A DNA stretch of 64,000 nucleotides from a virus. Taxonomy: Duplodnaviria; Caudoviricetes. Below, one piece after another: positions 3-56,288 of this stretch. The DNA lies in IMG/VR virus record IMGVR_UViG_3300025809_001850, one strand, 5' to 3'. Every line of letters begins with the position of its first letter. Positions within the stretch are counted from its first letter, which is position 1. The position numbers and the translations under genes are program-made. Below the pieces are notes generated by a model. The model ran no database searches. It was not told the origin of the DNA and saw only the letters and a program-made list of their open reading frames with translations.

Positions 3-908
3 TTGGACTTTGCTTTAAACTGGTTAAAGTATATTCGTGCATTGAATATGCAGAACATGGTGATAATGTATTGTTTGGATGACGAATCATTTGAACATAT
101 GTCCACAGAAAAAGACATTGAAAGTAAACGTTGGATAAGTTCTAATTTTCATATAGAAACCACTTCCGAGTTTCACCAAAAAGGATGGGATGCACTAATG
201 TGGAACAAAATGGAGGCTGCACATCAGTTGCTTACGCAAGGGTACAATGTTCTTTATGCTGATACCGACATCAACTTTTTAAAGAATCCATTATCAGACC
301 TTGAAAAAATTTGCGAAGAAGGAAATTATGATGTGGCATTTCAAGTTGCAGGTGGAGCAAGCATTTGTCCTGGTTTCTTTTATGCCAAAAGTAATGCTAA
401 AACAATTCATTTGTTTAACATTGACCGAGAAGATTTCAAACAAGGATACATTGAAACAAACGAAGACGGAGAAATCAAACAACGCAAATTTAAAGAAGAT
501 ATGATGCTTCTTAATCTTCGTTTGCATCGTGCGATTGAACCTGATGATATAAATTATGTACAACTTAGTGCGAATGGTTATCCACAGGGAGTTCATTGGG
601 AACGCAACATTAAAAATCGTGGTCGTGAACGAGCAGAACAAGACGCATTTATTGTTCACTTTAATTGTACTGTAGGTTGGAGCAACATTGATGAAATGAC
701 TGCAAACGGACTTCACAACTTTGATTATCATCAACGTAAAGTATGGAATATGCTTCGTCATGATATGTGGAAAGGAGATGTACCAGAAGGTATGATTGTA
801 CCGAAGGAAATTGTGGAAATGAAACCAGGACCTTTAACGAAAGCATTTCGAGCAGAAAAACGATCAAGAAGAGGTCGCAGAAAACGCACAGAAAACAAAG
901 CAAACTGA
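3..908 (+). CDS. nucleotide-diphospho-sugar transferase (GT77/Nucleotid_trans-like), 5' end may lie outside the window
   Basis: Motifs LMWNKM..YNVLYADTDINFLKNP (DxD), ICPGFFY, YPQG..FIVHFN; paralogous to 7906 and 14591. Confidence 0.7.
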   Translation: MDFALNWLKYIRALNMQNMVIMYCLDDESFEHMSTEKDIESKRWISSNFHIETTSEFHQKGWDALMWNKMEAAHQLLTQGYNVLYADTDINFLKNPLSDLEKICEEGNYDVAFQVAGGASICPGFFYAKSNAKTIHLFNIDREDFKQGYIETNEDGEIKQRKFKEDMMLLNLRLHRAIEPDDINYVQLSANGYPQGVHWERNIKNRGRERAEQDAFIVHFNCTVGWSNIDEMTANGLHNFDYHQRKVWNMLRHDMWKGDVPEGMIVPKEIVEMKPGPLTKAFRAEKRSRRGRRKRTENKAN

Positions 909-943
909 TATTTATTATAAAAAGTATTTAATGGAGAGAAAAA

Positions 944-3061
944 ATGGCAGATAAAATTAAAATAAGAGCAGGTACAGGTTTACAAACTACATTACAAAGT
1001 ACAGTAAACTACGCACAAGCATTCACAGAGTTGGCAAAAAATAGTTTGCAAAATGGAGCAACATATTGTGATATAGACATCGTAAACGCAGAAACAGAAA
1101 CTTACATAAAAGTAACTGATGATGGTCGTGGATTTGATCATGTTCGTGATGAAGAATACAATTTGAATGACTTTGAAAAATACTTCACGTTTGGTACTTC
1201 GTTTGATTTAGACAAACATGGAGATGGACCAAAACTCGGCAAAATGGGTATCGGTGGAAAGGTAAGTAACGATAAATTATCAATTGCAGGTGAATCTCAT
1301 TGGCAAATTCACACCAAGAATATTCACGGAAACTGCTTTGTAGTTGATTTTAATCCACCACAGGGTGCTAATTTCTTTGATGATTATCAACCACGTTGTG
1401 TAGAAGTGAAACCGGAAGATTCTTTAATCAAAACCAAAACTGGAACAGAAGTTAGAATTTTGAATGTCAATAAAGAATTTTTGAATACCGATTATGAAGC
1501 ATCTGTAAAAGCAGAATTGTTGCAATTTTTTGCTCATCTTATTGTCTCATACAAAAAGAACAATAAAATGCTTGATATTATTTTCATGGGAAATAAACTT
1601 GATTTTGATATTGATTTGAACGGAAATTATCGTGGTAAGATCACACGTACATTTAGTTATGAAATTGCAGGTGAAACAAAACATTCCACCTTTGAAATTG
1701 CTCTTAATGAATTTCGTGGAAGAATTCGTAGACAAAAAAACTCAAGTATTGTAAAAGCACTTGAATTAATTTCAGAAGTAAAAGTATGTGACATTCATTT
1801 AAACAATGAAGAAATTATTGAAAATATATTGTTAAAGTTATCCAAAGAAGAAAATACAGATATCGATGATACAGACTTTATGGGTAGAATGCATGGTTTT
1901 ATTGGTTATGTTCGTTGTGATGATTTAAGTAGAATTGAAGATGATCGTGGTATGATTGCAAAAAACATCTCTCACCACGGATTGAATGATGAACATCCTA
2001 TGGTAAAACCATTTCTTGTTGAAGTATATTATGTGGTGATGAAATTATTATACAATATATCTGCTTTGAATGTAAGAAAATCTACACGAACGGTAATGAA
2101 CAAAAATCTTATTGCGTATAATGTCGCAAAACTTTTGGCAAATGATTTTTCTAATGACATGGAAATTCTTACTGACAAAAAAATGTTGGGTTTGGACACT
2201 GTACAAAAAATAGATAACGCAGTTCAAAGAGACGATTTGGTATTAGAAAAATTACTCGGAAATACATACACTCCAACTGATAAACCAAACAAAGAATCAA
2301 CTGATAAACCAAACAAAGAATCAACCGATAAACCAAACAAAGAATCAACTGAAAACGAAACAGAAAACCTTCATACAATTAAACTTGATGAAAAGAACGA
2401 TAAAGTTGAAGACTCCAATACAGCACCAAACTCGGTGACGATAAATGACGAAGAAGTTGCCAAGGAACACAAACAATCAGAATCCTCACCTGCACCTGCA
2501 CCGACACCGAAAACATCGATGGTAGGTTCTATTGTAGATTCCACCAAGAAAAGATTTAATGAAGAGTCTGGTGATAACTCCGAAGCATCAACAGAGTATA
2601 CACAGATGACTCTTCCTGAATATAGAAAAATGTTATTGAAACGTTCTGGACTCAGAATTGATATAGAAGAATTAAAAGATGAAATAACAAGTGGAAATAA
2701 GACTGCAAAGAATACAAATAAACTCAACGAACTTGAACTTGAACTTCACACCATTGAAAATGTAATAAGTGGAATAAAGTTGTTTTATGCGATTGATTAT
2801 ATAGATAATCCTATGGTAATTTCAACTATTCGTGAATATCGTGATGGATTTATCATCGTAGTTAATGAAAACAATGTTCGTTATCGTTCAATTCAGTCCG
2901 ACATCATGTCACTTGCTCTTCATGTTGCAGAAGCAATGATCAAAGAAATCATTTATATTGAAGATAAAACGATTGATAAAGACCGTTTAGATTCTGAGTT
3001 ATCAAAATTCTACGAACGTCATTACAAACAATTACTAGGAAACGATTTACTTTCAATGTAA
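944..3061 (+). CDS. GHKL (HATPase_c, MORC/MutL/Hsp90-like) ATPase with acidic low-complexity linker
   Basis: N-box FTELAKNSLQNG, G1 VTDDGRGF, G2 GKMGIGGK, G3 TGTEV; GGAG SD upstream. Confidence 0.75.
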   Translation: MADKIKIRAGTGLQTTLQSTVNYAQAFTELAKNSLQNGATYCDIDIVNAETETYIKVTDDGRGFDHVRDEEYNLNDFEKYFTFGTSFDLDKHGDGPKLGKMGIGGKVSNDKLSIAGESHWQIHTKNIHGNCFVVDFNPPQGANFFDDYQPRCVEVKPEDSLIKTKTGTEVRILNVNKEFLNTDYEASVKAELLQFFAHLIVSYKKNNKMLDIIFMGNKLDFDIDLNGNYRGKITRTFSYEIAGETKHSTFEIALNEFRGRIRRQKNSSIVKALELISEVKVCDIHLNNEEIIENILLKLSKEENTDIDDTDFMGRMHGFIGYVRCDDLSRIEDDRGMIAKNISHHGLNDEHPMVKPFLVEVYYVVMKLLYNISALNVRKSTRTVMNKNLIAYNVAKLLANDFSNDMEILTDKKMLGLDTVQKIDNAVQRDDLVLEKLLGNTYTPTDKPNKESTDKPNKESTDKPNKESTENETENLHTIKLDEKNDKVEDSNTAPNSVTINDEEVAKEHKQSESSPAPAPTPKTSMVGSIVDSTKKRFNEESGDNSEASTEYTQMTLPEYRKMLLKRSGLRIDIEELKDEITSGNKTAKNTNKLNELELELHTIENVISGIKLFYAIDYIDNPMVISTIREYRDGFIIVVNENNVRYRSIQSDIMSLALHVAEAMIKEIIYIEDKTIDKDRLDSELSKFYERHYKQLLGNDLLSM
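2274..2352 (+). repeat. 24-bp tandem repeat x3.3 (caactgataaaccaaacaaagaat) encoding STDKPNKE
   Basis: Read directly; one substitution in copy 3. Confidence 0.95.
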
Positions 3062-3070
3062 GGTTTAAAA

Positions 3071-3745
3071 ATGATAAACCACGATATTAAATGCATATTC
3101 ATTCATATACCAAGAACTGCTGGTTCAAGTATATCAACTGCGTTATCTCAACGCAAAAAAGATGGTGAACGATTTGAAAAAACAAAACGTGATCCAAACG
3201 AATCCAAGAAGATTCACTTTAGTGTAGAACAGGCACAAAAAATGTTCGGCATGGATGTGTGGGAAGAGTATTTGACGTTCGCATTCGTAAGAAATCCGTG
3301 GGACAGACAAGTATCTCAATATCAATGGAGACTTGCCAAAGGAGAACGAGACGTTGCCAAACGTGACTTTAAAGAGTGGACAAAGTGGAGATGGGAAGGT
3401 TGGTTAAACTGGTTAGAGAATCCACGCAAGGTTATTCGTGGTGTTCCACAACTTGGACACCGTGATCGTGCAGTTGTATTGACAAAAGCATTTGATGAAA
3501 TCTACGATGAAAAAGAAGACAAGATTTTAGTGGACTTTGTGGGTCGTTATGAAAATCTTAGAGAAGATGTTGAAACTTTGTGCGGAAAACTGGGTGTAGA
3601 CAAGGACATCCTGTTACCCCACAAGCACAATGCAAAAAATCGTCCTCATTATACTGAATTCTACGATGATGAAACAATTGAAATTGTTCGTAAATTTTAC
3701 AAGAATGACATTGAAGTTCTTGGGTATAAATATGGGGAAAACTAA
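3071..3745 (+). CDS. carbohydrate sulfotransferase (Sulfotransfer_2/CHST-like)
   Basis: 5'-PSB HIPRTAGSS, 3'-PB FAFVRNPWDRQVS, C-terminal DFVGRYENL. Confidence 0.85.
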   Translation: MINHDIKCIFIHIPRTAGSSISTALSQRKKDGERFEKTKRDPNESKKIHFSVEQAQKMFGMDVWEEYLTFAFVRNPWDRQVSQYQWRLAKGERDVAKRDFKEWTKWRWEGWLNWLENPRKVIRGVPQLGHRDRAVVLTKAFDEIYDEKEDKILVDFVGRYENLREDVETLCGKLGVDKDILLPHKHNAKNRPHYTEFYDDETIEIVRKFYKNDIEVLGYKYGEN

Positions 3746-4278
3746 TGCTGTATTTATCTCTTGGGTCACAACCAGTTGTATCGTCTGTATTAAAAGGTTG
3801 TAATTTAAATACGAATTCAACTATTTTCGATAATGTCGGAGATTTATCATTTAAAACATTGTTGTTGTGTTTGAATACCCAATTCAAAGATTTTTTTCCA
3901 CCTGAAAATCAAATTCAAATTTATGGTGGAATTGTAAATGTTATCAATCAAGTTCCATATTATATAATTAAAGATAAAAGAAACGGAACATTATTTTATG
4001 ATGTATTGCCTGTAGGAAAGAAATCGGGTGCAATATACAACGGAGCAAAAACAAGGTATACAAAACTTGCTTCGGAATATACTAAAACAATTCAGACCAA
4101 TTCATCTATAATTTTTGTACGACAAATGCTTGATGATAACGAAAATGATACAATTGAATTGACGAACACTTTAAAATATGTTTATCCATCTTGTAGATTT
4201 TTTTTAAAACACAGATATGCAGGTATTGTGGAGAGTAAATGCTATCTATATTGGAAATCGGAGTTGTGTAAAATATGA
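3745..4278 (+). CDS. hypothetical protein, divergent DUF1796-like N-terminus
   Basis: N-terminal YLSLGSQ..STIFDN resembles the DUF1796 SLGxxC..PFDW pattern but lacks the Cys; coupled to neighbours. Confidence 0.35.
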   Translation: MLYLSLGSQPVVSSVLKGCNLNTNSTIFDNVGDLSFKTLLLCLNTQFKDFFPPENQIQIYGGIVNVINQVPYYIIKDKRNGTLFYDVLPVGKKSGAIYNGAKTRYTKLASEYTKTIQTNSSIIFVRQMLDDNENDTIELTNTLKYVYPSCRFFLKHRYAGIVESKCYLYWKSELCKI

Positions 4279-5027
4279 AAATATTATTTTTAATATTGGA
4301 TCATGCAAGTGTTTATGACCAATCAATTGCTTGTCAAAGAACATGGGTTAAAAATATTGACACCAGACACGAAATAATTTTTTTAGGTGACACCTCGATG
4401 CCGGGTAATATACTTTTACATGAGGTGTATAAACCTTTACACTCGGAAACTCGGTCAGATATAACTGAAAAAATTGTCAAGGGATTTAGACACTCGTTAA
4501 AAAAAGACTGGGATTATTTGGTCAGATGTGATACAGATGTATATTGTAATATATCTGAATTAGAAAAATTTTTAAATATTTGTGATAAAACCAAACCACT
4601 ATATGCAGGACATGGAGTTTACAGTCAGTCTCCAACGGGACATCCGAATTATATGGTGACTGATTTAAAAGATATACCGAAAAAGAAATACTGGTATTTT
4701 GCCCAAGGTGGGTTTTATATTCTATCAAGGTCTGCACTTGAAAAGACTATTGATGATATGTATTTTCCAGGTCCAATTGAACCGGAATCAGAAGATGTAA
4801 TGGTGGGAGATGTTATGAAACAACAAGAAATACTTTTAAGAGACAGACCTGATTTGTTCAATGTAGGTTGGGTTGGTGAAGGGTGGGGTGGAAACACTGA
4901 GTTGCCGAGAGAGAATACTTTATCTGAACATTTGGATATAATGAATAACAATTTTATTTCGACACACAAAGTAAATGCAAAGCAAATATATGCAATTCAC
5001 GAACTAATTGAAAAAAAATATGGATGA
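4275..5027 (+). CDS. GT31/fringe-like galactosyltransferase
   Basis: DYLVRCDTDVYCN, FAQGGFYILSR, EDVMVG motifs. Confidence 0.7.
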   Translation: MKILFLILDHASVYDQSIACQRTWVKNIDTRHEIIFLGDTSMPGNILLHEVYKPLHSETRSDITEKIVKGFRHSLKKDWDYLVRCDTDVYCNISELEKFLNICDKTKPLYAGHGVYSQSPTGHPNYMVTDLKDIPKKKYWYFAQGGFYILSRSALEKTIDDMYFPGPIEPESEDVMVGDVMKQQEILLRDRPDLFNVGWVGEGWGGNTELPRENTLSEHLDIMNNNFISTHKVNAKQIYAIHELIEKKYG

Positions 5028-5820
5028 TTATTGTGCATTATATTGTATTGGTGATACAAACTCAGAATATTTTGAGAATGGTTTACTTGTCAGTATAAGG
5101 TCACTTAGAAAAAGTAATCCAAATATACCAATTGAAATTTTTTATACAGATTTAAATAAATCGCAAATAAATAAATTATCAAAATATAATTTGACAAAGA
5201 TTAATCCAACTGGATTTTCGGAAGGAAGTCGTGACGATCTAGGAACTGCTATGTTTTTAAGGTTATATTGTGGAATATTACATAAAAAATATAAAAAAAT
5301 AATTTATTTAGATGGAGATACAATAATATTAGATAATTTAGATAAACTTGCAAATTTAAGTGAGTATCCAATTTATGCAAGAAACTGGATAAACTTAGAG
5401 CATTTGGAAACCAAGTGGAATGAGAAACTTTTCAATGAATTGAAACTTTCAACAAATGATTTCAATATAAATTCAGGTGTGCTTGTTATAGATCCAAAAT
5501 TTATGAATGAAACTAATTTTTGCGATAAAGCAAAAATGCTTGGTAATAATATAGGATTTGAAAACTTATATAATCCAGACCAAATCATTATTTATATGTT
5601 ATGTAAACAATTAAATTGTCTTGGTACATTTGATCTAACATGGAATTTTATGAAATATAAAGATTTTCAAACCGAAGATTTTGAGTTAAAAATAAATTCG
5701 AATAATTTAGTGTGTCCATTTTTATTAAATAAGAACCAATTTGTTAACATTGTTCACTATAATTCTACCGAAAAACCCTGGACGACAAATATGACAGAAG
5801 AGTATAAACAATTTGTATAG
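5020..5820 (+). CDS. glycosyltransferase family 8
   Basis: MFLRLY..IIYLDGDTII, INSGVLVI, PDQ, VHYNSTEKPW; ATG at 5020 preferred. Confidence 0.85.
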   Translation: MDDYCALYCIGDTNSEYFENGLLVSIRSLRKSNPNIPIEIFYTDLNKSQINKLSKYNLTKINPTGFSEGSRDDLGTAMFLRLYCGILHKKYKKIIYLDGDTIILDNLDKLANLSEYPIYARNWINLEHLETKWNEKLFNELKLSTNDFNINSGVLVIDPKFMNETNFCDKAKMLGNNIGFENLYNPDQIIIYMLCKQLNCLGTFDLTWNFMKYKDFQTEDFELKINSNNLVCPFLLNKNQFVNIVHYNSTEKPWTTNMTEEYKQFV

Positions 5821-5836
5821 TAATATTTATTTTAGA

Positions 5837-6577
5837 ATGAACAATGTCAAAAAAATATCAATGGTTGTAATGAACTGGTTAAGACCAGAAGTTCTTCAAA
5901 ATCATATTCTTCCTGATATGACAAAATACGAACTCATTGATGAAATCATAATTTCACATGGTCGTGAAGATACTTATTTTGAATTTGACCATCCAAAGAT
6001 TGTCAATCGTAAAGATTGGGGTGAAATAAATGAATATTATGGTCTTAGTCGAAGATTTTTGGCTGCATCGGAAGCAAGTAACGAAATAATATTGATGATA
6101 GATGATGACGAGTATCCAACTGAGGATGCAGTCAAAAAGATGTATGATATTCACACTGAAAATCCAAAAAGGATGATAGGACCATTTGGACAAAATTTAA
6201 GATGGGGTAACTACAACTTACATATGAGGTATGGAGATGTGTGTGTTTTAATAACAAAATGTACAATGTTTGAAAGAAGTTTATGTAATCACTTTTTCAA
6301 GCATATGCCAATTATGCGTGAAATTTTAAAAGAAGGTCAACCTTATTGGAACGGAGAGGATATTTTAATGTCAGCAGTTGCACGATTTCATTATGGGGTT
6401 AATAATCTTGGTGTAAAAAATTGTGGTAATATGAATCCCATTGAAGGTCGTGAAAATAAAAGAAATAGAGCAATTGCGAGTTGGAAAGGGCATCGTGAAT
6501 ATCGTGGCAAAGTAGTGTGGCATTGTGCCCGTTACTTTAATATATGGCACGAATGGACAGGAGAAAGCAATGAATAA
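5837..6577 (+). CDS. GT64 (exostosin/EXTL C-terminal-like) glycosyltransferase
   Basis: VMNWLRP, YGLSRRF, ILMIDDD, WNGEDILMS motifs. Confidence 0.65.
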   Translation: MNNVKKISMVVMNWLRPEVLQNHILPDMTKYELIDEIIISHGREDTYFEFDHPKIVNRKDWGEINEYYGLSRRFLAASEASNEIILMIDDDEYPTEDAVKKMYDIHTENPKRMIGPFGQNLRWGNYNLHMRYGDVCVLITKCTMFERSLCNHFFKHMPIMREILKEGQPYWNGEDILMSAVARFHYGVNNLGVKNCGNMNPIEGRENKRNRAIASWKGHREYRGKVVWHCARYFNIWHEWTGESNE

Positions 6578-7256
6578 TCCGTTTGACTTTTTTGATGAAA
6601 TATACTGCATAAATCTTGAGAGACGAACTGATAGATGGAATCAATGTCAATCTGAGTTTGATAAAATTGGAATTGCTGATCGTGTAATAAAATTTGATGC
6701 TTTTGATAACAAAGAAAATCCCAAGAAGGGTTGTTATGATAGTCATTTGAGTGTTATCAAGTTAGCATATGAAAGAAAACTAAAAAATGTATTGATCTTT
6801 GAGGATGATGTTGCTTTTTTAAAAAAATATGATGATAAAATATTAAGCAAATCAATTAAAAGTTTAAACGAAACAAATTGGGAATTTTTTTATTTGGGTG
6901 GTTTGGAGAGAAGAATTAAACCACGACCAAAATACAACCGTTTATCAAACGAGTGGCAAGGTGAGTTTAACGAAGAGTATGATTATATAATGGAATGTTC
7001 ATCGGTAGGTTGGGCGCACTCATTTGCAGTAAATTGTTCAATATTTGAACGTATTGTGAGTGACTACGACAATAACATTTGGAATGTTCTTGTGGAAAGC
7101 CATGACAGTCATCTTGATAGATATTATCAAGAAGTGCTAAAACCGAAAACTTATGTATGTGTACCTTCACTTACAACACAATACAATTTAGTGAGTGATT
7201 TGACACGCACTCGTACAAACCGAAATTTGAGATTAAATCCAACGGATAATATCTAA
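6570..7256 (+). CDS. glycosyltransferase family 25
   Basis: YCINLERRTDRW, GCYDSH, VLIFEDDV, FFYLG, AHSFAVN. Confidence 0.85.
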   Translation: MNNPFDFFDEIYCINLERRTDRWNQCQSEFDKIGIADRVIKFDAFDNKENPKKGCYDSHLSVIKLAYERKLKNVLIFEDDVAFLKKYDDKILSKSIKSLNETNWEFFYLGGLERRIKPRPKYNRLSNEWQGEFNEEYDYIMECSSVGWAHSFAVNCSIFERIVSDYDNNIWNVLVESHDSHLDRYYQEVLKPKTYVCVPSLTTQYNLVSDLTRTRTNRNLRLNPTDNI

Positions 7257-7909
7257 TGAAAAATCCATTTGATTTTTTTGATGAAATTTATTGTATAAAT
7301 CTTGATCATCGCACAGACAGATGGAAAAATGTGCAGACTGAATTTGAAAAACTTGGAATTGCAGATAGAGTGAAGAGAATATCTGCGGTTAATCGTGAAG
7401 ATGTAAAGAAAAAACACGGTGACTTGGTTACACATCTAAGTAATCCTAAACTTGGCCAACTTGCAGTTACAGAAAGTTCACGTAAATGCATAGAAGATGC
7501 AATCAAATGCAATGCAATAAATTGTTTAACATTTCAAGATGATGTTTGTTTTCGTAATTATGATGCTGATTTTTTTCGTGAAGCATTAAATGAACTTCCT
7601 GAGGATTGGGAAACTTTATTTCTTGGGTATGAGTGTTGGAAACGAAGGCAATTGAAACAAATACACTCAGAAAGACTTTTAAGAATTGAAAAGTTTTGGA
7701 TGGCACACGCAGTCGCAAACAATGCAAGAGTTTTTGACAGATTATATTTAGATATAGATAAAATACCAAATCCACTTGAAAACAGAGAAGGATCGCATGA
7801 AGAATTGTTGTGGGACTATAATAATTATGGTTTGAAATATGAACATAGATTTGCATTTCAAGTGGACAATGAAAATGATAGTGATATTAATGACGGAAAA
7901 ATTTTATGA
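7256..7909 (+). CDS. glycosyltransferase family 25
   Basis: YCINLDHRTDRW, TFQDDV, WETLFLG, AHAVA. Confidence 0.8.
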   Translation: MKNPFDFFDEIYCINLDHRTDRWKNVQTEFEKLGIADRVKRISAVNREDVKKKHGDLVTHLSNPKLGQLAVTESSRKCIEDAIKCNAINCLTFQDDVCFRNYDADFFREALNELPEDWETLFLGYECWKRRQLKQIHSERLLRIEKFWMAHAVANNARVFDRLYLDIDKIPNPLENREGSHEELLWDYNNYGLKYEHRFAFQVDNENDSDINDGKIL

Positions 7910-8721
7910 AAATAGTAAGTGCGTGTAATTTTGGATATTTGCCATTAACATTAAATTGGTTAAAATCATTAGAACTTCTTGGTTTACAAGAAAATGTATT
8001 ATTGTATTCACTTGATAAAAAAGTGCAAGAAGCATTAAATGAAAAGGGAGTAGAAAATATATTATGGGAGACTACCAAGTTTTCAGACATTCCAGAAGAG
8101 CATAACTCAATTCATTCAGATGCTTGGGCAGACATTGTATTTAGAAAAATAGAGTTAGTAAATGCGACATTGAAATCCGGTGAAGATGTATTTTTCACGG
8201 ATTCCGACATTATCTTTAAAAAGAATCCTATTGAACACTTGGAAGGGATTACCAAGAATTTGGACATGGTTATTCAATGTGAAGGACATCCCACTCGTAA
8301 TCCACTTGCTTGTAGTGGTGTTTATTATGCCAAAAGTTGCGAATCAACAATCAGTTTAACAACGGTTGACCTAGAGTATATGGAATGTGTGGCAAACAGA
8401 CTTGTAGGACTACGTAGAACTCCATTTAAGTTTGATTGCGACCAAGGGTACTTAAATGCAAGATTGGGATTAAAACCACGCACTTGGAAGTTTAACAAGA
8501 TGTTTGCAGATGAAGAAGTTCGTTTAGACGTAATGTCTGAACCACACACCAAGTTTGATTTTCTGTCAAGAGATGAATTTCCAACTGGTGATTATTGGTT
8601 GGACAATCAAGAACGAGTCAAGGATAGATGTTATTTGATTCACTACAATAGTCATCGTCTTCAGGGACCAATGGAGAACAAGATAAATCAAATGAAGAAG
8701 GATGGTAATTGGTTGATATGA
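7906..8721 (+). CDS. nucleotide-diphospho-sugar transferase (GT77-like)
   Basis: RKIELVN..VFFTDSDIIFKKNP, CSGVYY, DQG, FPTG..LIHYN. Confidence 0.75.
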   Translation: MKIVSACNFGYLPLTLNWLKSLELLGLQENVLLYSLDKKVQEALNEKGVENILWETTKFSDIPEEHNSIHSDAWADIVFRKIELVNATLKSGEDVFFTDSDIIFKKNPIEHLEGITKNLDMVIQCEGHPTRNPLACSGVYYAKSCESTISLTTVDLEYMECVANRLVGLRRTPFKFDCDQGYLNARLGLKPRTWKFNKMFADEEVRLDVMSEPHTKFDFLSRDEFPTGDYWLDNQERVKDRCYLIHYNSHRLQGPMENKINQMKKDGNWLI

Positions 8722-9476
8722 AAATAAAAAACAACATAACAAATTCATATCCAATCGCATTCCATTTAAATGGTGGATTTGAAAATTGCAAAGTTGGTTA
8801 CGATTTGTTTGACGATGAAACAATAAACAATTGGAATTGGAATTCAACAGAAGAATTGAGGGATGACGTGACTTTGTGTTTTGCAAAGTGGGGTGACGAA
8901 TCCAAGTTTGTATGTACCTTGGATGAGAACTTAAAAAGATTCAATATGTCTTATCTGAATATTGGAGAAAACTTCGATCCAACTAACTTCTCGTATGATG
9001 AATCAAGAGTACGCAAACCACATTTGTTGCATGAAAATTTAAATGAAATTACCACGAAATATATCATGGGGTGGGATGTTGACGTATTTTTTACGGAACA
9101 TCCAAATCACGTAGTTGAGAGATTTGAAAACGAGTTTGATTGTGAATGGTTGTTTAACGCAGAGAATACTTGCTTTCCAATGACTCGTCCACGGAAACAG
9201 GCAATGGGTCTTTATAGAAAGTGGAAGGAACACAATGATCTTGTTGGTGAATCTCCGTTCAAATATTTGAATTCCGGATTGTTCATTGCAAAGGTTGATT
9301 TCTTCAGAGAGATTTTTGAAGATATAATAAACACACCATTGTTTGAAGATCAAACTGATCAAGGTCAGTTTCATCAAATTTATAGAAAGTATTTTCCACG
9401 AATGCAAATTGATTATGGTTGCAGAATTTTTCAGTCTTTGTATAAGTTAGATGAAAATTGTTTGGAGGTGATATAA
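8718..9476 (+). CDS. PLOD/LH3 N-terminal glycosyltransferase-domain-like protein
   Basis: WDVDVFF, WLFNAENTCFP, FKYLNSGLFIA, DQTDQGQF, IDYGCRIFQSL resemble the GT domain of procollagen lysyl hydroxylases. Confidence 0.65.
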   Translation: MKIKNNITNSYPIAFHLNGGFENCKVGYDLFDDETINNWNWNSTEELRDDVTLCFAKWGDESKFVCTLDENLKRFNMSYLNIGENFDPTNFSYDESRVRKPHLLHENLNEITTKYIMGWDVDVFFTEHPNHVVERFENEFDCEWLFNAENTCFPMTRPRKQAMGLYRKWKEHNDLVGESPFKYLNSGLFIAKVDFFREIFEDIINTPLFEDQTDQGQFHQIYRKYFPRMQIDYGCRIFQSLYKLDENCLEVI

Positions 9477-9478
9477 AA

Positions 9479-10531: not shown

Positions 10532-11249
10532 TTTACACATCTGCTTTTGTGGTGATGAATCTGTCGTAAATAAATACACTACGGTTATTAACTCCATCCA
10601 AAAAAAGAATTCGCACCATACTATTAATATTCATTTTATCCGTCCGTTTGATTCATGTGAAGATTACGAAGAATTAAAAAAACACGTTGCTTCATTTGAC
10701 AATCTTAACTTATTTGAATATCATAAAACTTGGGAAAGTAATTATAATGGAATGGAACATATAGAAAGTTCTGCTACAATGATAAGATTGTATATTCCTG
10801 AATTACTAAATGTTGACAAAGTAATTTATTTGGACATGGATTTAATTGTAAACATGGATTTACAAACATTATACGAAATAGATTGTGAAGAACATGGAAT
10901 TGCGATGGCAAATCATATGGACACACCGAGACGTGATAGAAGAAGATTAGGTTTGGGAAAAAAATTATCGGGTAATGCAGGTGTAATGGTGCTTGATTTA
11001 AATCGTCTTCGTGAAAATGATTTTACAAACAAGTGCTTAGAATATAATAAAACACACGGAGGCAATGACCAATGTGCAATCAACTGGTATTGTCGTGGAA
11101 CACACAAAATACTTGAAGTAAAGTATAATTTATTTTACGCAGATAATGGTTATTTGATAAATACCTTAGAAGATTATATTTTCCACTGGGCAGGTCCATA
11201 TAAACCTTGGCATGATAAAATTGACAAATATGATTTTTTGTGGGAATAA
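10524..11249 (+). CDS. glycosyltransferase family 8
   Basis: TMIRLYIPELL, VIYLDMDLIV, NAGVMVLDL, NDQ, HWAGPYKPW. Confidence 0.85.
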   Translation: MGNLHICFCGDESVVNKYTTVINSIQKKNSHHTINIHFIRPFDSCEDYEELKKHVASFDNLNLFEYHKTWESNYNGMEHIESSATMIRLYIPELLNVDKVIYLDMDLIVNMDLQTLYEIDCEEHGIAMANHMDTPRRDRRRLGLGKKLSGNAGVMVLDLNRLRENDFTNKCLEYNKTHGGNDQCAINWYCRGTHKILEVKYNLFYADNGYLINTLEDYIFHWAGPYKPWHDKIDKYDFLWE

Positions 11250-20674: not shown

Positions 20675-20699
20675 TTACTTGTTTTTATATTTATATTGG

Positions 20700-23727: not shown

Positions 23728-23747
23728 ATATATTATATTTATAGAGT

Positions 23748-24443: not shown

Positions 24444-24484
24444 ATGGGAAGACCACAGAATAAAGAAAAACTAAATAAAGAACA

Positions 24485-31918: not shown

Positions 31919-31960
31919 CTTTGTTTTTATAATTTCCTCGGAAACTTCTATTTATATAAT

Positions 31961-33397: not shown

Positions 33398-33403
33398 CAT
33401 TAT

Positions 33404-34564: not shown

Positions 34565-34570
34565 AATATC

Positions 34571-36624: not shown

Positions 36625-36641
36625 ATGATATTTATATTAAA

Positions 36642-38336: not shown

Positions 38337-38342
38337 TGTGAA

Positions 38343-50468: not shown

Positions 50469-50487
50469 ATTTCATGTGGAGAGAAAA

Positions 50488-51681
50488 ATGAGAGATGATG
50501 AATTAAAATTACCTGAGTTTAAGGTAAACGAAACGATGAGTACCCTCAGTCAACGAATTGATTGGGGATTGCGACAATTGAATGTACCAAAAACATGGAG
50601 CATTACACGTGGTGAGGGAATTACTGTTATGGTAATTGACACAGGACATCCTGTTCATCCTGACATCGGTGATAATGCAATAGAAGGAAAAAACTGCATT
50701 CCCAATGAACCAATTGAAGATGAAAACGGACATCAATCTCATTGTACAGGTATCATTTGTGCAAAAGACAATGAAACTGGAATGGTGGGTGTTGCTCCTG
50801 GATCAAAATGTATTTCAGTAAAAGCATTAAGTAAAAGTGGAAGTGGAAGTTATCGTGGATTGGCAGAAGCATTGGATTATGCAATTGAAATGAAACCAGA
50901 CTTGATAAGCATGAGTTTAGGAGGTTCTTCACCTTCAGCTGCTATGCAATCACGCATACAAAAATTGTACGATATGAATATTCCTGTTATTTGTGCAGCT
51001 GGAAACTCAGGTGATGGTGGAGTTAATTATCCAGCAGCCTTTGATGAAACAATAGCAGTTGCAGCTTACGACAAATACGGAAATGTAGCAAGATTTTCTT
51101 CTAAAGGAGAAAAAGTAGAATGGGCTGCTCCTGGTGTAAACATTTATAGTACATATCTTAACAATGGATATGCTAGTTTAAGTGGAACTTCAATGGCGTG
51201 TCCGTTTATTGCGGGTGTTGTGGCGTTGATGCTTGCAAAGCACAAAAAGCAAGAAGAATCAACTGGTATGAACGATTGTAAAACAGTTGAACAAATTCGT
51301 GAGCATCTTCTTAAATACACCAAAGACAAAGGTGAAGTCGGCCGTGACAATTCATGGGGATACGGAGTTATTGATGTAGAGAAACTTATCGGTGGTGGTG
51401 ATATTGAACAACCAGTTCCAACACCTACTCCAACACCTACTCCAATAGAAAAACCAACACCTCAACCACCTGAAGAGAAACCTGTGGAAAAAGAACCGGT
51501 GAAAGAAGAACCAAAAAAGAAAAACAAAAACACTTTATTTATTGTTATTGGAGTTGTGGTAATTGCAACAATTATTGGAATTGCCGTGGTAATGAACAAC
51601 AAAGTTGATATACCAACACCACCTTATTATGATGAAAATGGTGAAATCAATTGGGACAAGAAATTTGAACTTGATCGATAA
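50488..51681 (+). CDS. subtilisin-like serine protease (S8) with Pro/Thr linker and C-terminal membrane anchor
   Basis: Catalytic VIDTG (D), HQSHCTGII (H), GTSMACP (S), AAGNSG; LFIVIGVVVIATIIGIAVVM TM segment. Confidence 0.9.
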   Translation: MRDDELKLPEFKVNETMSTLSQRIDWGLRQLNVPKTWSITRGEGITVMVIDTGHPVHPDIGDNAIEGKNCIPNEPIEDENGHQSHCTGIICAKDNETGMVGVAPGSKCISVKALSKSGSGSYRGLAEALDYAIEMKPDLISMSLGGSSPSAAMQSRIQKLYDMNIPVICAAGNSGDGGVNYPAAFDETIAVAAYDKYGNVARFSSKGEKVEWAAPGVNIYSTYLNNGYASLSGTSMACPFIAGVVALMLAKHKKQEESTGMNDCKTVEQIREHLLKYTKDKGEVGRDNSWGYGVIDVEKLIGGGDIEQPVPTPTPTPTPIEKPTPQPPEEKPVEKEPVKEEPKKKNKNTLFIVIGVVVIATIIGIAVVMNNKVDIPTPPYYDENGEINWDKKFELDR

Positions 51682-52391: not shown

Positions 52392-52973
52392 ATGGGAACT
52401 GATGGAAAAACAATTTTTCCGACTGAATATTTGTCGGCTGATTACTTTGAAAAAGTCGGAGGTCGCAAAGCATATGCATTTTGGTTGGTTGGTAATAGTG
52501 GAAGTGGTAAAAGTACACTCACTAAGACCGTAGAAACAATGCTGATGGAACATGAATATTGGGTAAAGTGCTTAGACGGAGACAATATGCGAAGCACCAT
52601 CAATTCAGACTTGGATTTGTCAGTTGAATCTAGAACAGAAAATGTTCGTAGAAGTGCTGAAATTTCAAAAATGTTTTTGATGAATGGAACAACTACAATT
52701 AATTGTTTTATTTCTCCAACTGAAGAAAGTCGTAATCAAGCACAAAAAATTATTGGTGAACGTTTTTGTTTGATTTATATCAAAGCATCACATGAAGAAG
52801 TTAAAAAACGAGATGTTAAAGGATTATACAAAGATAATGCTGAAAACATGAACAATTCTTTGAATTTATTTGAAGAACCTAGTGACCCTGATTTGATTAT
52901 AGACACCACAGGTAAAACGATAAAATATTCTGCGAATATTTTATTTAATTTTATAATAAACCAACCCATTTGA
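52392..52973 (+). CDS. cysC: adenylylsulfate (APS) kinase
   Basis: WLVGNSGSGKST, LDGDNMR, RTENVRR, FISP, RDVKGLY, FEEP. Confidence 0.88.
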   Translation: MGTDGKTIFPTEYLSADYFEKVGGRKAYAFWLVGNSGSGKSTLTKTVETMLMEHEYWVKCLDGDNMRSTINSDLDLSVESRTENVRRSAEISKMFLMNGTTTINCFISPTEESRNQAQKIIGERFCLIYIKASHEEVKKRDVKGLYKDNAENMNNSLNLFEEPSDPDLIIDTTGKTIKYSANILFNFIINQPI

Positions 52974-52988: not shown

Positions 52989-53894
52989 ATGAAAAAATGT
53001 AATTTAACACACTTAGAGGAACTTGAAGCAGAAAGCATTCATGTGTTGCGAGAAACCGCTGCACAATTTTCAAGTTCAACATTGCTTTTTAGTGGTGGTA
53101 AAGATAGTTTGGTCTGTCTGCACCTTATCGCAAAAGCATTTTATCCTGCTAATGCTCCGTTTGTTGCACTTCATGTCGACACAGGACACAACTTTCCAGA
53201 GGTAATGGAATTTCGTGACAAAGTTCTTGAACAATACAAAATGAAATTATTTGAACGCAAAGTTGAAGATGCGATTGCAGAAGGTCTTATTAAAGATGAA
53301 ATCGGCATCGGTGCAACTCGTAACGAACTTCAAATACCTGTGCTTCTTGATGCAATTGAGCATCACAAGTTTGATGCTTGTTTAGGAGGAGCAAGACGAG
53401 ACGAAGAAAAAGCAAGAGCAAAAGAACGTTTCTTTTCACATCGTGATGACTTTGGTCAATGGGACCCAAAAAATCAACGACCAGAAATTTGGGATGCATT
53501 TAACGGAAAGAAAAATCAAGGTGAACACTTTCGTGTATTTCCAATCAGTAATTGGACTGAACTTGACGTATGGACTTATATAAAACAAGAAAACATTCCG
53601 TTGCCATCATTATATTTTTCACACAAAAGAAAATGCTATGAACGTGACGGAGTTTGGTATGGTCACGCTGATTACATTAAATTAAAAGACGATGAAAAAC
53701 TAGAAGAAAAAGTAGTTCGCTTTCGTTCAATTGGTGATGTAACAACAACTGGTGCTTGTTTAAGTACTGCAAACAATCTTGATGATATTATCGCAGAAGT
53801 TGCAAGTGCAACCACAACTGAACGTGGAACAAGAGGAGACGATAAAAAATCCGATACAAGTATGGAAGATCGTAAGCAACAAGGATATTTCTAA
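52989..53894 (+). CDS. cysD: sulfate adenylyltransferase subunit 2
   Basis: LEAESIHVLRE, LFSGGKDS, HVDTGHNFPE, GGARRDEEKARAKER.FS, WDPKNQRPE, RVFPISNWTELD, MEDRKQQGYF. Confidence 0.95.
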   Translation: MKKCNLTHLEELEAESIHVLRETAAQFSSSTLLFSGGKDSLVCLHLIAKAFYPANAPFVALHVDTGHNFPEVMEFRDKVLEQYKMKLFERKVEDAIAEGLIKDEIGIGATRNELQIPVLLDAIEHHKFDACLGGARRDEEKARAKERFFSHRDDFGQWDPKNQRPEIWDAFNGKKNQGEHFRVFPISNWTELDVWTYIKQENIPLPSLYFSHKRKCYERDGVWYGHADYIKLKDDEKLEEKVVRFRSIGDVTTTGACLSTANNLDDIIAEVASATTTERGTRGDDKKSDTSMEDRKQQGYF

Positions 53895-53895: not shown

Positions 53896-55233
53896 ATGGC
53901 AAAGAACAACAACAACGATAAAGAAAACAAGAAACCTGTGGAAAATCAAAAAAAAGAACCAAAACAGAATGTTGATAAGTTGCAAAACAACGAACTTCTT
54001 CGTCTTTCAACTGCGGGTAGTGTAGATGATGGCAAAAGTACCTTAATTGGTCGTTTACTTTACGATACAAAAAGTGTGATGAAAGATCAATACGAAGCAG
54101 TTCGTGCCACTTCCAAAAAGAAAGGTGAAGAAGAAGTAAATCTTGCTTATTTGACAGACGGACTTAAAAGTGAACGTGAACAAGGAATCACGATTGACGT
54201 AGCATATCGTTATTTTAATACTGCGAATCGTAAGTTTATTATTTCAGATACACCAGGACACGTTCAATACACTCGTAATATGATTACAGGTGCAAGTAAA
54301 AGCAACGTTGCAATTATTTTGGTTGACGCACGAAAAGGAATTTCTGAACAAACAAGAAGGCATTCGTTTATTGCAAGTCTTTTGAAAATACCTCATGTTA
54401 TTTATGCGGTAAATAAAATGGACTTGATTGATTATGATGAGCAAAAGTTCAATAAAATTCGTAATGAACTTAAACAATTTAGTGCAAAATTAAGATGTAA
54501 CGATATTCGTTTTATTCCTATATCAGCATTAAAAGGTGATAATGTTACAACCAAGAGTCAAAAAACATCTTGGTATAAAGGTGGTCATTTGCTTGGTATG
54601 CTTGAAAACATTGAAATTTTCTCTGACAATAATTTGGTAGACGCACGATTTGATATTCAAACTGTGATTCGTCCTCATAGTGATAAATGGCATGACTTTC
54701 GTGGATACGCAGGAAAAATCGTAAGTGGTAGTTTTGAAAAAGGACAAAAAGTTTCTGTGCTTCCAAGTGGATTTGAAACACGAATTAAAGATATGCGAGT
54801 ATATAAGGATTTAATAAATCATGCGTGTACACCTGCGAGCATCGTAATGCAACTTGAAGATGATATAGATGCAGGTCGTGGTGATATGATTGCCCGTGTA
54901 GATAATCTTCCAAAAACTTCTCAAAATTTTGATGCAATGATTTGTTGGATGTCGGATGGTGTTATGCAACCTCGTAAAAAATATTTGCTAAAACACGGAA
55001 GCAACGAAGTAACTGCTATGATTACAAAAAAGGTTTATACATTAGATGTAAATACTTTCAGTAAAGCAGAAGATCAAACATTGCAACTTGGATTAAATGA
55101 TATTGCAAGAATCAGCATAAAAACAAGCAAACCCATTAACTTTGATTCATTTGAAAGCAATCGTGCCAATGGAAGTTTTATTTTAATTGATACGCAAACA
55201 AATGAAACACTTGCCGCTGGAATGATAAAGTGA
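53896..55233 (+). CDS. cysN: sulfate adenylyltransferase subunit 1 (GTPase)
   Basis: LLRLSTAGSVDDGKSTLIGRLL, EREQGITIDVAYRYF, DTPGHVQYTRNM, VNKMD, GSFILID; no fused CysC. Confidence 0.94.
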   Translation: MAKNNNNDKENKKPVENQKKEPKQNVDKLQNNELLRLSTAGSVDDGKSTLIGRLLYDTKSVMKDQYEAVRATSKKKGEEEVNLAYLTDGLKSEREQGITIDVAYRYFNTANRKFIISDTPGHVQYTRNMITGASKSNVAIILVDARKGISEQTRRHSFIASLLKIPHVIYAVNKMDLIDYDEQKFNKIRNELKQFSAKLRCNDIRFIPISALKGDNVTTKSQKTSWYKGGHLLGMLENIEIFSDNNLVDARFDIQTVIRPHSDKWHDFRGYAGKIVSGSFEKGQKVSVLPSGFETRIKDMRVYKDLINHACTPASIVMQLEDDIDAGRGDMIARVDNLPKTSQNFDAMICWMSDGVMQPRKKYLLKHGSNEVTAMITKKVYTLDVNTFSKAEDQTLQLGLNDIARISIKTSKPINFDSFESNRANGSFILIDTQTNETLAAGMIK

Positions 55234-56288
55234 AAACTGTAATTGTAACGGGTGGTCTTGGATACATCGGTAGTCATACCGTTGTGGAACTTTTAAATGC
55301 AAATTATGATGTGGTGGTTGCAGACAATTTGTCAAATTCTTCGGAAAAAGTAATTGACGGAATTCGTCAAATCACGGGCAAAAGTATAACCTTCGTTAAT
55401 CTTGATATTCGTGATTATTTTAAATTAGAGTCATTGTTAGGATTTTATCAGCAAAGCACAATTGGTGTAATTCATTTCGCTGCTTGTAAAAGTGTCGGAG
55501 AAAGTATGAAAGAACCAAGCAAGTATTATGATAATAATGTTACAGGTACAAACAACTTGCTTAAAGCAATGAAACGATACAAAGCAGATAATCTGGTGTT
55601 TAGTAGCAGTTGCACTGTTTATGGTCAAGCAGATGATTTACCAGTCACAGAACAAACTCCACAAAAACCTGCGGAAAGTGTTTATGGTCGTACCAAGCAA
55701 ATTTGTGAGCAAATGATAAAAGATTTTCACACAGAACACAATTACAATTCTGTGCTTCTTCGTTATTTCAATCCAATTGGCGCACATGAAAGTTCTTTGA
55801 TTGGAGAACTTCCAAACGGAACTCCCGACAACCTTTTACCGTACGTCGCCGAGACTGCAAGTGGAAAACGGAAATTGTTTACTGTGTTCGGAGAAGACTA
55901 TGACACCGAAGATGGAACTTGCGTTCGTGATTACCTTCATGTGGTTGATTTGGCAAAAGCACACGTTTTGGCATTGGAAGTTTCGGTGGAAAAAAATCTG
56001 AAAGCAGAACCTGTTAATTTAGGAACAGGTACTGGATATTCCGTGAAACAAGTTCTTGAAGCATTTGAAAAAGAAAACGACATTAAGATAAACACTCACT
56101 ACGGAAATCGTAGAAAAGGAGATGTTGAAGCAATTTATGCAGACCCAAGTTACGCAGAAAAGTTGCTTGGATGGAAATCAAAACTTGGATTAAAAGAAAT
56201 GGTAACTTCAGTTTGGAACTGGCAAAAAACAATATCAAGCAAATGTTGTGGTGGTGGTTGTGGTTGTCATGTAAACAAAGAAATTTAG
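55230..56288 (+). CDS. galE: UDP-glucose 4-epimerase
   Basis: VTGGLGYIGSH, IHFAACKSVGES, FSSSCTVYG, YGRTK, LRYFNPIGAH, DGTCVRDYLHVVDLA. Confidence 0.94.
   Translation: MKTVIVTGGLGYIGSHTVVELLNANYDVVVADNLSNSSEKVIDGIRQITGKSITFVNLDIRDYFKLESLLGFYQQSTIGVIHFAACKSVGESMKEPSKYYDNNVTGTNNLLKAMKRYKADNLVFSSSCTVYGQADDLPVTEQTPQKPAESVYGRTKQICEQMIKDFHTEHNYNSVLLRYFNPIGAHESSLIGELPNGTPDNLLPYVAETASGKRKLFTVFGEDYDTEDGTCVRDYLHVVDLAKAHVLALEVSVEKNLKAEPVNLGTGTGYSVKQVLEAFEKENDIKINTHYGNRRKGDVEAIYADPSYAEKLLGWKSKLGLKEMVTSVWNWQKTISSKCCGGGCGCHVNKEI

Follow-up and report, generated by a model that had tools for sequence, protein, structure and literature searches.

Introduction

Virus-encoded glycosylation of virions is known from the capsid glycans of chlorovirus PBCV-1 and the fibril glycans of mimivirus. 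In such systems the virus brings its own soluble glycosyltransferases (GTs) and nucleotide-sugar enzymes, which act in the cytoplasm, without host secretory machinery, on a structural protein. We know of no case of virion glycosylation that involves sulfation or synthesis of 3′-phosphoadenosine 5′-phosphosulfate (PAPS), the compound that donates sulfate. Here we analyse a gene island in a 64,000-nucleotide stretch of viral DNA (Duplodnaviria; Caudoviricetes; IMG/VR record IMGVR_UViG_3300025809_001850), the whole of which we call the window, that carries the PAPS-synthesis genes cysC, cysD and cysN together with sulfotransferase, nucleotide-sugar and fibre genes and a large set of GT genes. Judged from its genes, the island very probably encodes a working pathway for sulfated glycans that runs on phage-made PAPS. 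It resembles the viral systems above in its soluble, cytoplasmic enzyme set, and mimivirus also in having a rhamnose-nucleotide enzyme of the plant/mimivirus bifunctional type (PDB 7jid); a structural protein is likewise the target that we favour here, as argued from context below.

Bacterial O-antigen and capsule clusters, with which the sulfated capsules of marine Vibrio and Cobetia are said to belong, also combine co-oriented rmlAB, galE, many GT genes, an acetyltransferase and sulfotransferases, whereas the island is phage-encoded among fibre genes and has no initiating phosphoglycosyltransferase, Wzx, Wzy, Wzz or ABC exporter. In the rhizobial NodP/NodQ, NodH and NodZ system, as in the island, a dedicated CysD/CysN(/CysC) set feeds PAPS to a carbohydrate sulfotransferase encoded beside fucosyltransferase-family genes. 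The island differs in its setting, a phage fibre module, and in its lack of backbone genes, as no open reading frame (ORF) in the window matches the NodA, NodB or NodC chitin-oligomer families in Pfam; its sulfotransferases are of the Sulfotransfer_2 type, with NodH type not shown, and its NodZ matches score near the cut-off of 28.3 (32.0, 25.7 and 19.8 bits), with the FUT8 and O-FucT families competing for them. Closer still in proposed substrate are the bacterial hydroxylase/sulfotransferase/PAPS-synthetase operons that Iyer et al. 2010 (PMC2938197) predicted to modify collagen-like and tail-collar proteins. Those operons and the island are both computational predictions, and both co-encode sulfotransferases and PAPS synthesis with collagen-like, phage-fibre-like candidate substrates; the operons, however, are centred on 2-oxoglutarate (2OG)-Fe dioxygenases and direct sulfation of hydroxylated residues, while the island has no dioxygenase and a huge GT set.

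Among phages, O-glycosylation of capsid and tail-tube proteins by phage GTs is established in mycobacteriophages (Freeman 2023, as cited in PMC12619734), and the described examples of phage virion glycosylation use 1-4 GTs, unlike the roughly 28 found here. Sulfation genes have been met in fragments. Ralstonia jumbo phage phiRSL1 carries an annotated cluster (ORF232-238; record positions 164264-171498) of an APS (adenosine 5′-phosphosulfate) kinase, a glucosyltransferase, two nucleotidyltransferases, two further glucosyltransferases and a sulfotransferase, two genes away from a thymidylate-synthase-family gene, a possible case, in a phage that has been isolated, of modifying DNA or glycans with sulfate, and the uncultured 462-kb phage LR756500 encodes a full APS kinase and a sulfotransferase. 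These clusters, and related ones in IMG/VR, share with the island the grouping of APS kinase, sulfotransferase, GT and sugar nucleotidyltransferase genes; they differ in having no CysD, 1-3 sulfotransferases and few GTs, and none has been characterised. The function of phage sulfotransferases was called ‘unclear’ in a study of OM43 phages (PMC10580990), and viral cysC was found almost only in marine and freshwater samples by Kieft et al. (bioRxiv 10.1101/2021.01.05.425418). Our literature search found no paper on PAPS synthesis coupled to sulfotransferases and GTs in a phage, in agreement with the initial annotation of the window, which knew of no characterised tailed phage with a complete glycan-sulfation pathway.

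Predicted PAPS synthesis and sulfotransferases

We scanned every + strand ORF against Pfam, NCBIfam and PHROGs and compared the ORFs with each other by BLAST. The genes of PAPS synthesis are as follows.

52392..52973, + strand: CysC, APS kinase, with P-loop, LDGDN, FISP and KGLYK motifs
52989..53894, + strand: CysD, sulfate adenylyltransferase small subunit, with the SGGKDS PP-loop at residue 35
53896..55233, + strand: CysN, GTPase subunit of sulfate adenylyltransferase, with intact G1, G3 and G4 motifs (GSVDDGKS, DTPGH and NKMD)

CysD scores 397.9 bits with TIGR02039 (cut-off 396.6) and 424.5 bits with PRK05253, and CysN, which starts 2 nt after cysD, scores 536.6 bits with TIGR02034 (cut-off 336.1). 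CysC reaches 125.2 bits with Pfam APS_kinase (cut-off 21.1) and 130.7 bits with TIGR00455, slightly below the cut-off of 138.7. The three genes named in the initial annotation are present, full-length and intact in their catalytic motifs, and its logic of PAPS feeding sulfotransferases holds; the cysN start that it placed at 53779 belongs at 53896.

Four sulfotransferase or sulfotransferase-like genes of the window were assigned by Pfam, the cut-off for Sulfotransfer_2 being 22 bits.

3071..3745, + strand: sulfotransferase (Sulfotransfer_2, 66.8 bits; PHROG 3347 at 1e-25), PAPS-binding motifs conserved
11912..12592, + strand: sulfotransferase-like ORF (Sulfotransfer_4 at cut-off), with an NKTATTS loop
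32726-33397, + strand: sulfotransferase (Sulfotransfer_2, 44.6 bits) amid an insert of non-glycan genes
35064..35723, + strand: sulfotransferase (Sulfotransfer_2, 71.8 bits; PHROG 3347)

Together with an ORF of 182 aa at 21425 that has a PAPS-loop-like motif at its N-terminus, these make up the five sulfotransferase-like genes previously reported. Across five Sulfotransfer_2 paralogues, residues K7, R74, N75, P76, W77, R79 and S82 are invariant, covering the 5′-phosphosulfate loop (K/R-T-G-S-T/S) and the 3′-phosphate motif (RNPW-x-R ... S). The only solved relative of the sulfotransferases is heparan sulfate 6-O-sulfotransferase, a weak match (E 0.015). Over the whole island we count at least nine sulfotransferases, four of them upstream of the window (two of these weak and Sulfotransfer_1/3-like).

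The same three cys genes might have nothing to do with their neighbours, forming instead a sulfur-assimilation auxiliary set for cysteine while the sulfotransferases draw on host PAPS; Kieft et al. (bioRxiv 10.1101/2021.01.05.425418) indeed list viral cysC, cysD and cysN under assimilatory sulfate reduction. We consider this quite improbable. CysD is the only PAPS_reduct ORF in the window, and neither the window nor the 10 kb downstream holds a sulfite reductase match, so that cysH, cysI and cysJ are not found nearby and the PAPS is not obviously meant for cysteine synthesis. The APS-reductase route, for its part, needs no CysC. Furthermore, at least nine PAPS-consuming sulfotransferases lie within 55 kb, both genuine phages found with an APS kinase (LR756500 and phiRSL1) also have a sulfotransferase, and in relatives the cys genes are fixed beside glycan and fibre genes.

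Sugar donors, glycosyltransferases and modifying enzymes

The glycan island spans about 55 kb and about 50 genes on one strand, between two groups of fibre genes. The single-strand layout around the fibre genes described earlier holds on the ORF scan; the island, though, does not start at base 3 as first described, since it really begins about 5.6 kb ahead of the window. The genes of this extension are a NodZ-like ORF, the two weak Sulfotransfer_1/3-like ORFs, a DUF1796-like ORF, two Sulfotransfer_2 genes, an epimerase and a GT77 gene. Inside the window, the glycan genes and those interspersed with them are as follows.

1..908, + strand: GT77-type GT (Nucleotid_trans), 318 aa, 63.3 bits in Pfam, starting 48 nt before the window
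944..3061, + strand: GHKL-type ATPase (HATPase_c_3), 705 aa
3745..4278, + strand: DUF1796 protein, with paralogues at 18430-19167 and upstream at L003:5772-6548
4275..11249, + strand: run of ten GT genes, among them GT31/Fringe (4275), GT8 (5020), GT64 (5837), GT25 (6570), GT25 (7256), GT77 (7906), PLOD-type GT (8718), weak GT11-like (9479) and GT8 (10524)
11287..11907, + strand: SGNH/GDSL-like esterase, weak in Pfam, with a GDS motif
12593..25114, + strand: seventeen ORFs, mostly GTs, assigned by Pfam, paralogy, language-model neighbours and motifs: 12593 without assignment; 13273 GT25-like plus GT77; 14591 GT77; 15288 weak GT31; 15946 FUT8/NodZ-like; 17016 weak GT2; 17783 weak GT25-like; 18430 DUF1796-like; 19164 GT11; 19976 alpha/beta hydrolase (GxSxG); 20679 GT25; 21425 small sulfotransferase-like; 21974 GT11-like; 22801 NodZ-like; 23748 GT25 paralogue; 24485 weak GT7C
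25122..25976, + strand: RmlA, glucose-1-phosphate thymidylyltransferase (TIGR01207, 370.6 bits, cut-off 360.65)
25973..26752, + strand: RgpF-type (rhamnan synthesis) GT, 33.6 bits in Pfam
26815..27699, + strand: NRS/ER-type bifunctional 3,5-epimerase/4-reductase (PDB 4qqr, 7jid)
27684..28232, + strand: hexapeptide-repeat O-acetyltransferase (Vat/CatB-like), a clear match
28222..29196, + strand: RmlB, dTDP-glucose 4,6-dehydratase (TIGR01181, 429.5 bits, cut-off 365.1)
29215..30888, + strand: two-domain GT (DUF6734 plus GT2)
31349..35017, + strand: inserted non-glycan genes, namely dNMP kinase (31349), LOG/SLOG (31961), MetK (33404) and QueF-like (34571)
35698..40888, + strand: four GT genes, namely NodZ/O-FucT-like (35698), a fucosyltransferase-like plus GT2 fusion (36618), GT2 (38343) and GT2 (40157)
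55230..56288, + strand: GalE, UDP-glucose 4-epimerase (TIGR01179, 398.6 bits, cut-off 262.3)

Three DUF1796-like paralogues (‘putative papain-like peptidase’) are dispersed through the island. For ORFs 12593-13273 and 18430-19164, AlphaFold models built from single sequences reached pLDDT values of 41 and 32 and were discarded.

The donor genes rmlA, rmlB, galE and the epimerase-reductase, all claimed in the initial annotation, are borne out, with RmlA and RmlB passing NCBI equivalog cut-offs and GalE a clear match. No RmlC was found in the window. The ORF at 26815-27699, separated from rmlA by the RgpF-type GT gene, matches the Arabidopsis 3,5-epimerase/4-reductase (3e-38) and the mimivirus UDP-L-rhamnose synthase (1e-18) and reaches only 61 bits with RmlD; with an enzyme of this type, the last steps to an L-rhamnose nucleotide would need no RmlC. 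Ahead of the window, at a distance of about 1.1 kb to 70 nt (L003:7962-8987), a short-chain dehydrogenase/reductase (SDR) matches plant GDP-mannose 3,5-epimerase at 3e-97; the match implies that a phage has the rare donor GDP-L-galactose at its disposal. As no GDP-fucose synthesis genes were found in the window, the donor for the fucosyltransferase-family enzymes may be L-galactose or GDP-fucose from the host. The earlier description of the glycans as fucosylated is accordingly weakened: fucosyltransferase-family genes are there, while GDP-fucose synthesis is absent from the window and the GDP-sugar enzyme nearby is the GDP-mannose 3,5-epimerase.

Nineteen ORFs reach the Pfam gathering score of a GT family: GT77/Nucleotid_trans (four), GT8 (two), GT25 (three), GT31, GT64, GT_PLOD, GT11, RgpF, NodZ/O-FucT and GT2-type (four; one of these is a fusion whose fucosyltransferase-like N-half shares 36% identity with the adjacent gene). 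Up to nine further GT-like ORFs have borderline Pfam scores, BLAST paralogy or language-model neighbours, giving about 28 where about 29 had been counted. The acetyltransferase and two esterase folds noted before are also present; the hexapeptide enzyme is the clear one, and the SGNH-like and alpha/beta-hydrolase-like ORFs are weak in Pfam and carry their GDS and GxSxG motifs. MetK, a strong match (566.9 bits, cut-off 309.4), had been counted as donor supply for the glycans, a role left unsupported by the island, in which no methyltransferase was found.

The insert that contains MetK, with its dNMP kinase, LOG and QueF-like genes, hints at nucleotide or 7-deazaguanine-type DNA modification. 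The QueF-like protein has a counterpart of 67% identity in a T4-like IMG/VR phage. Hypermodification of the phage DNA, with the GTs and sulfotransferases decorating modified bases, would be a different use for the island itself. Phage GTs do hypermodify DNA (Pyle 2024, as cited in PMC12619734), the APS kinase, GT and sulfotransferase genes of phiRSL1 lie beside a thymidylate-synthase-family gene, and the dNMP kinase and QueF-like genes are inside the island. Even so, we find this explanation very hard to credit: the roughly 28 GTs, of protein- and glycan-type families (GT11, GT23/65-like, GT31, GT64, GT77), far exceed known DNA glycosylation systems, and the window has no match to a base hydroxymethylase or a DNA-type GT family.

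Conservation and turnover among relatives

CysC of the window belongs to a widespread group, with more than 120 distinct clusters at 78-94% identity (191-195 aa), all marine, some of them on contigs of 176-570 kb. In one relative, whose CysC is 84% identical and whose contigs measure 284 and 348 kb, three sulfotransferases, GT25, GT2, the PDDEXK nuclease and a different fibre of 1104 aa are followed by an S8 protease, cysC-cysD-cysN-GalE and the same downstream genes as in the window. In another, with 79% CysC identity, three collagen-repeat proteins, an S8 protease and cysC-cysD-cysN precede two SDRs of the GDP-mannose-dehydratase family, GalE, GTs and a Laminin_G_3 protein. Between these relatives and the window, CysD is 92-96%, CysN 89-90%, GalE 82-84% and the S8 protease 78-82% identical, whereas the sulfotransferases reach 32-38% at most and the fibres show no match. 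With a core that is 78-96% identical alongside such divergent sulfotransferases and fibres, the donor genes are conserved in steady company with fibre genes, and it is the transferases and the fibres themselves that are exchanged. The S8 protease directly precedes cysC in all three lineages read and recurs at 57-69% identity in five IMG/VR sulfotransferase loci. The initial annotation had proposed co-occurrence in related phages as a check, and the relatives do keep cysC-cysD-cysN-GalE beside fibre genes, GTs and, in one of them, sulfotransferases.

Related sulfotransferases occur on 367 stretches in IMG/VR, often flanked by two or three sulfotransferases, GT77, a GHKL ATPase (37-40% identity), GT25/GT11, RmlB-like and S8 protease genes. 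In five of these loci, homologues of the window's GHKL ATPase (944-3061) adjoin GT77 and sulfotransferase genes. The T4-like record IMGVR_UViG_3300021964_009390 (222 kb; Gp23 296.8 bits) has 8-10 sulfotransferase-like matches over at least three loci and no CysD.

CysD was found in none of the 45 sulfotransferase-carrying IMG/VR records and in none of three phage records checked, which included phiRSL1 and LR756500; among 50,697 phage records no genuine phage had it, the only hits being mis-filed or fragmentary records. An APS-kinase-domain match was present in 17 of the 45. We did not count these matches as plain CysC or as proven PAPS supply, because nine of the ten loci read encode a fusion of about 275 aa with an APS-kinase-like N-half and, as its C-half, an HxGH nucleotidyltransferase resembling nicotinamide mononucleotide adenylyltransferase (L085:1483-2310, with homologues in L086-L093). 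Its motifs are DLGFSxEDRxEHxRRMGK, F-x-C-P-T in place of FISP, and GRYQPFHxGH; candidate roles for the fusion are those of a compact PAPS synthase and of an enzyme related to NAD. A pattern search of IMG/VR from a two-sequence CysC alignment gave poor patterns and one known locus only.

Source of the DNA

Every long ORF of the window is on the + strand, the GC content is about 0.33 and there is a single tRNA-Met. Exact copies of the window proteins occur on a 260,986-bp JGI contig (3300025654, Ga0209196_1000001), in which the window is positions 90026-154025, reversed, and on ENA contigs of 198-308 kb, with 33-77 collection blocks per protein; marine contigs of this phage recur at 261-348 kb, with ERZ27295490 k141_540121 and ERZ27286373 k119_255052 as examples in the 307-348 kb range. 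Marine metagenome runs from at least nine studies contain essentially all sampled words of window positions 50000-58000.

The DNA looks like that of an uncultured marine jumbo tailed phage, a reading based on the S74 fibre (Peptidase_S74, 48.9 bits), matches to 34 PHROG fibre and structural families and to viral protein clusters, the gene layout, the IMG/VR relatives and the lack of cellular core genes. PDDEXK_15 (100.6 bits) is a further mark of tailed phages, and the protein cluster nearest to the GHKL ATPase (944-3061) is 96% viral, with Uroviricota as its commonest phylum. No ribosomal or core metabolic genes were met in the roughly 150 kb read, on which ground a cellular origin was rejected. 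An origin from a giant virus (Nucleocytoviricota) was rejected on the bacterial-type CysDN, the operon-like overlapping genes, the S74 fibre and the PHROG matches.

The phage could not be placed in a lineage, because tblastn of a fibre-like protein of 1179 aa against isolated phages gave no match and the best hit of a helicase fragment, to Synechococcus phage S-CAM9, has only 24% identity. Megablast of 45 kb of the window against the 50,697 phage records returned just 80 bp of cysN, in mis-filed bacterial contigs, and scans of IMG/VR for close relatives using the HATPase protein and CysD gave no match. The nearest cellular relatives of CysN are mostly marine Verrucomicrobiota of the order Opitutales (54-60% identity), a weak hint to donor or host, given that identities run at 50-62% over several phyla and that the candidate set was biased by the pattern search.

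Fibre genes as candidate acceptors

The fibre genes of the window and their neighbours lie between the GT genes and cysC.

40926..41462, + strand: phage PDDEXK_15/RusA-like nuclease, a conserved anchor with 83% identity in a relative
42722..48526, + strand: collagen/S74 fibre, 1934 aa
48581..50440, + strand: coiled-coil protein of 619 aa with a DUF6174 domain
50476..51681, + strand: S8 peptidase of the subtilisin type, bearing a hydrophobic segment in its C-terminal part

The 1934-aa fibre has six collagen G-X-Y runs (one of them GDKGDKGDKGDK), a Laminin_G_3 domain, a Peptidase_S74 chaperone domain and many PHROG tail-fibre matches. The 619-aa protein, with six Pro/Thr repeats of KTPTPTTGSFYE, is a candidate O-glycan acceptor. 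On the other side of the island, about 75 kb of upstream sequence holds an uninterrupted, co-oriented run of about 20 giant fibre-like proteins (L115:1 to L108:20709; among them proteins of 3004, 2017, 1384, 1292, 1285, 1179, 1169, 1140, 1009, 994, 859 and 856 aa) with Laminin_G_3, RCC1/WD40-like, DUF285/leucine-rich-repeat-like and glycine-rich domains, an arsenal of fibres or adhesins that is unusually large for a phage. Two of these giants match the PHROG families ‘baseplate wedge subunit’ and ‘virion structural protein’, and the 681-aa and 3004-aa proteins adjoining the island have mucin-like Pro/Thr/Ser linkers of 60-120 residues. The same upstream walk met a CCA-adding enzyme, an RNase T-like protein, a 2OG-Fe oxygenase and an aminotransferase. 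The 2OG-Fe_Oxy_2 dioxygenase and the class-V aminotransferase sit among the fibre genes (L114:2771-4632) and are candidate modifiers of fibre proteins or sugars.

Fibre and island genes also share an upstream motif. With a strong strand bias, the octamer ATATTTAT is present at 17 sites on the + strand and at two on the - strand, against about 9 expected on both strands together. Often followed by A, it precedes the start codons of fibre and island genes by 5-34 nt, the latter genes including cysD, that for the epimerase-reductase and one for a sulfotransferase (+ strand sites at, for example, 908, 5823, 11263, 23735, 26803, 35040, 40911, 42246 and 52973, with others in L108, L111, L113 and L115). 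Of the 96 genes that make up the fibre, island and cys regions, about 22 have it, versus about 2 of 42 downstream, where ORFs are small. We regard it as a candidate phage promoter common to fibre and glycan genes; its sharing suggests one regulatory class for the two, with no proof of late expression.

On the mechanism that we propose, CysD/CysN and CysC would convert sulfate and ATP to PAPS in the cytoplasm of the infected cell, while RmlA, RmlB and the NRS/ER-type enzyme would supply an L-rhamnose nucleotide, GalE UDP-galactose and the epimerase upstream of the window GDP-L-galactose. About 26-28 soluble GTs (GT2, 8, 11, 23/65-like, 25, 31, 64, 77 and PLOD-type) would build hetero-oligosaccharides, which at least nine PAPS-dependent sulfotransferases, the acetyltransferase and the esterases would then decorate. 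The acceptor would be the phage's own fibres, through their collagen G-X-Y runs and mucin-like Pro/Thr/Ser linkers, yielding a sulfated virion coat. We tentatively favour such a cytoplasmic pathway directed at virion fibres, giving it slightly less than even credence, the acceptor being read from genomic context: the island lies in a fibre module, its genes share the upstream motif, export and lipid-carrier parts are absent and relatives retain the cys genes beside collagen-like or other fibre genes.

Hydrophobic segments are absent from all ORFs between 3 and 40888, and these ORFs have no family match to Wzx, Wzy, a flippase, a polymerase, an ABC exporter or a polyprenyl-phosphate initiating GT; a precomputed Pfam listing of about 6 kb upstream has no export or initiating-transferase family either. 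These absences bear on whether the island rewrites the host surface instead, placing sulfated, deoxy-hexose-rich side chains of lipopolysaccharide, capsule or exopolysaccharide on host lipid-linked intermediates for host export, which could block superinfection or keep progeny from sticking to infected cells and debris. T4-like cyanophage P-SSM2 has lipopolysaccharide-type gene clusters. The combination of rmlA, rmlB, galE and RgpF with GT2, GT8 and GT25 is typical of O-antigen and lipooligosaccharide loci, and the sulfotransferase and GT content varies strongly among relatives, as in serotype loci. In marine bacteria, hypervariable surface islands with GTs and sulfotransferases act as phage receptors (bioRxiv 10.64898/2026.04.03.716430). 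We hold host-surface remodelling, the most serious alternative to fibre decoration, to be possible and, on balance, unlikely, because an initiating transferase, flippase, polymerase, chain-length regulator and ABC exporter are all missing, about 50 island ORFs show no membrane segment, the island sits within the fibre module under the same upstream motif, and in relatives the PAPS genes keep turning up together with the S8 protease and with fibre genes, collagen-like or other. About 50 genes would, moreover, be a very large outlay for exclusion in a lytic-looking phage.

The solubility of all the enzymes and the lack of any acceptor-specific feature would also suit a free product, such as a sulfated oligo- or polysaccharide that inhibits nucleases as a polyanion or is released at lysis as a matrix, or a sulfated small molecule; many viral sulfotransferase clusters in IMG/VR do lie away from recognisable fibre genes. 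This we rate as improbable, since there is no transmembrane processive synthase or exporter, the linkage to fibre genes is conserved and the many non-processive, Golgi-like GT families better fit a defined, branched oligosaccharide on a carrier.

Several observations weigh against fibre decoration by a phage. Pro/Thr linkers and collagen repeats are common in unglycosylated fibres. Clusters for cell-surface polysaccharides typically contain rmlAB, galE and RgpF, and most GTs of the O-antigen type are soluble as well, which keeps the gene set compatible with action on lipid-linked intermediates of the host through host flippases. Neither a lysyl nor a prolyl hydroxylase was found among the island genes, the closest 2OG-Fe oxygenase being about 65 kb upstream, and terminase, portal, capsid and sheath genes were not met in the 150 kb read, the 75 kb upstream walk included. 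A nuclease gene and some small ORFs have the octamer in front of them too, so that its standing as a late promoter is unproven. Contigs from four marine RNA libraries that match island and cys genes at 90-100% identity speak for expression, though these are assembled contigs for which DNA carry-over is possible. Finally, the partial precedents in sequenced phages (APS kinase plus sulfotransferase in phiRSL1 and LR756500) and the IMG/VR sulfotransferase clusters weaken a claim of uniqueness.

Significance

A coat of this kind, if real, would be the first sulfated glycoconjugate made by virus-encoded enzymes only, and by far the largest known phage glycosylation system. It would explain the aquatic viral cysC and other cys genes that are now read as sulfur assimilation, along with the role of phage sulfotransferases. 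The clade is common in marine metagenomes, so effects on adsorption, stickiness, grazing and carbon and sulfur flux would be ecologically relevant. The layout of conserved donor genes and variable transferases would also amount to a natural library of soluble carbohydrate sulfotransferases and Golgi-like GTs expressible in bacteria.

A bolder and improbable extension would have the fibres covered by sulfated glycans with much L-rhamnose, L-galactose and galactose, a mimic of the sulfated polysaccharides of algae (ulvan-, porphyran- or fucoidan-like) that serves as bait for polysaccharide-foraging marine bacteria, with Verrucomicrobiota/Opitutales or Bacteroidota as possible hosts. If so, glycan-binding uptake proteins of the host would capture the virion, adsorption would proceed through a phage-made glycan and not a phage protein, and the swapping of sulfotransferases and GTs among relatives would be host-range evolution by glycan re-coding.

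Genes downstream of the island

A MYG1-family phosphoesterase gene (56831-57706) follows galE and has the same place in a relative (68% identity). As speculation, its product could clear 3′-phosphoadenosine 5′-phosphate, the by-product of sulfotransferases. Further downstream, 58738-60065 and 62646-63635 encode VanZ-like and rhomboid-family membrane proteins and a UvdE UV-damage endonuclease, which are kept in one relative.

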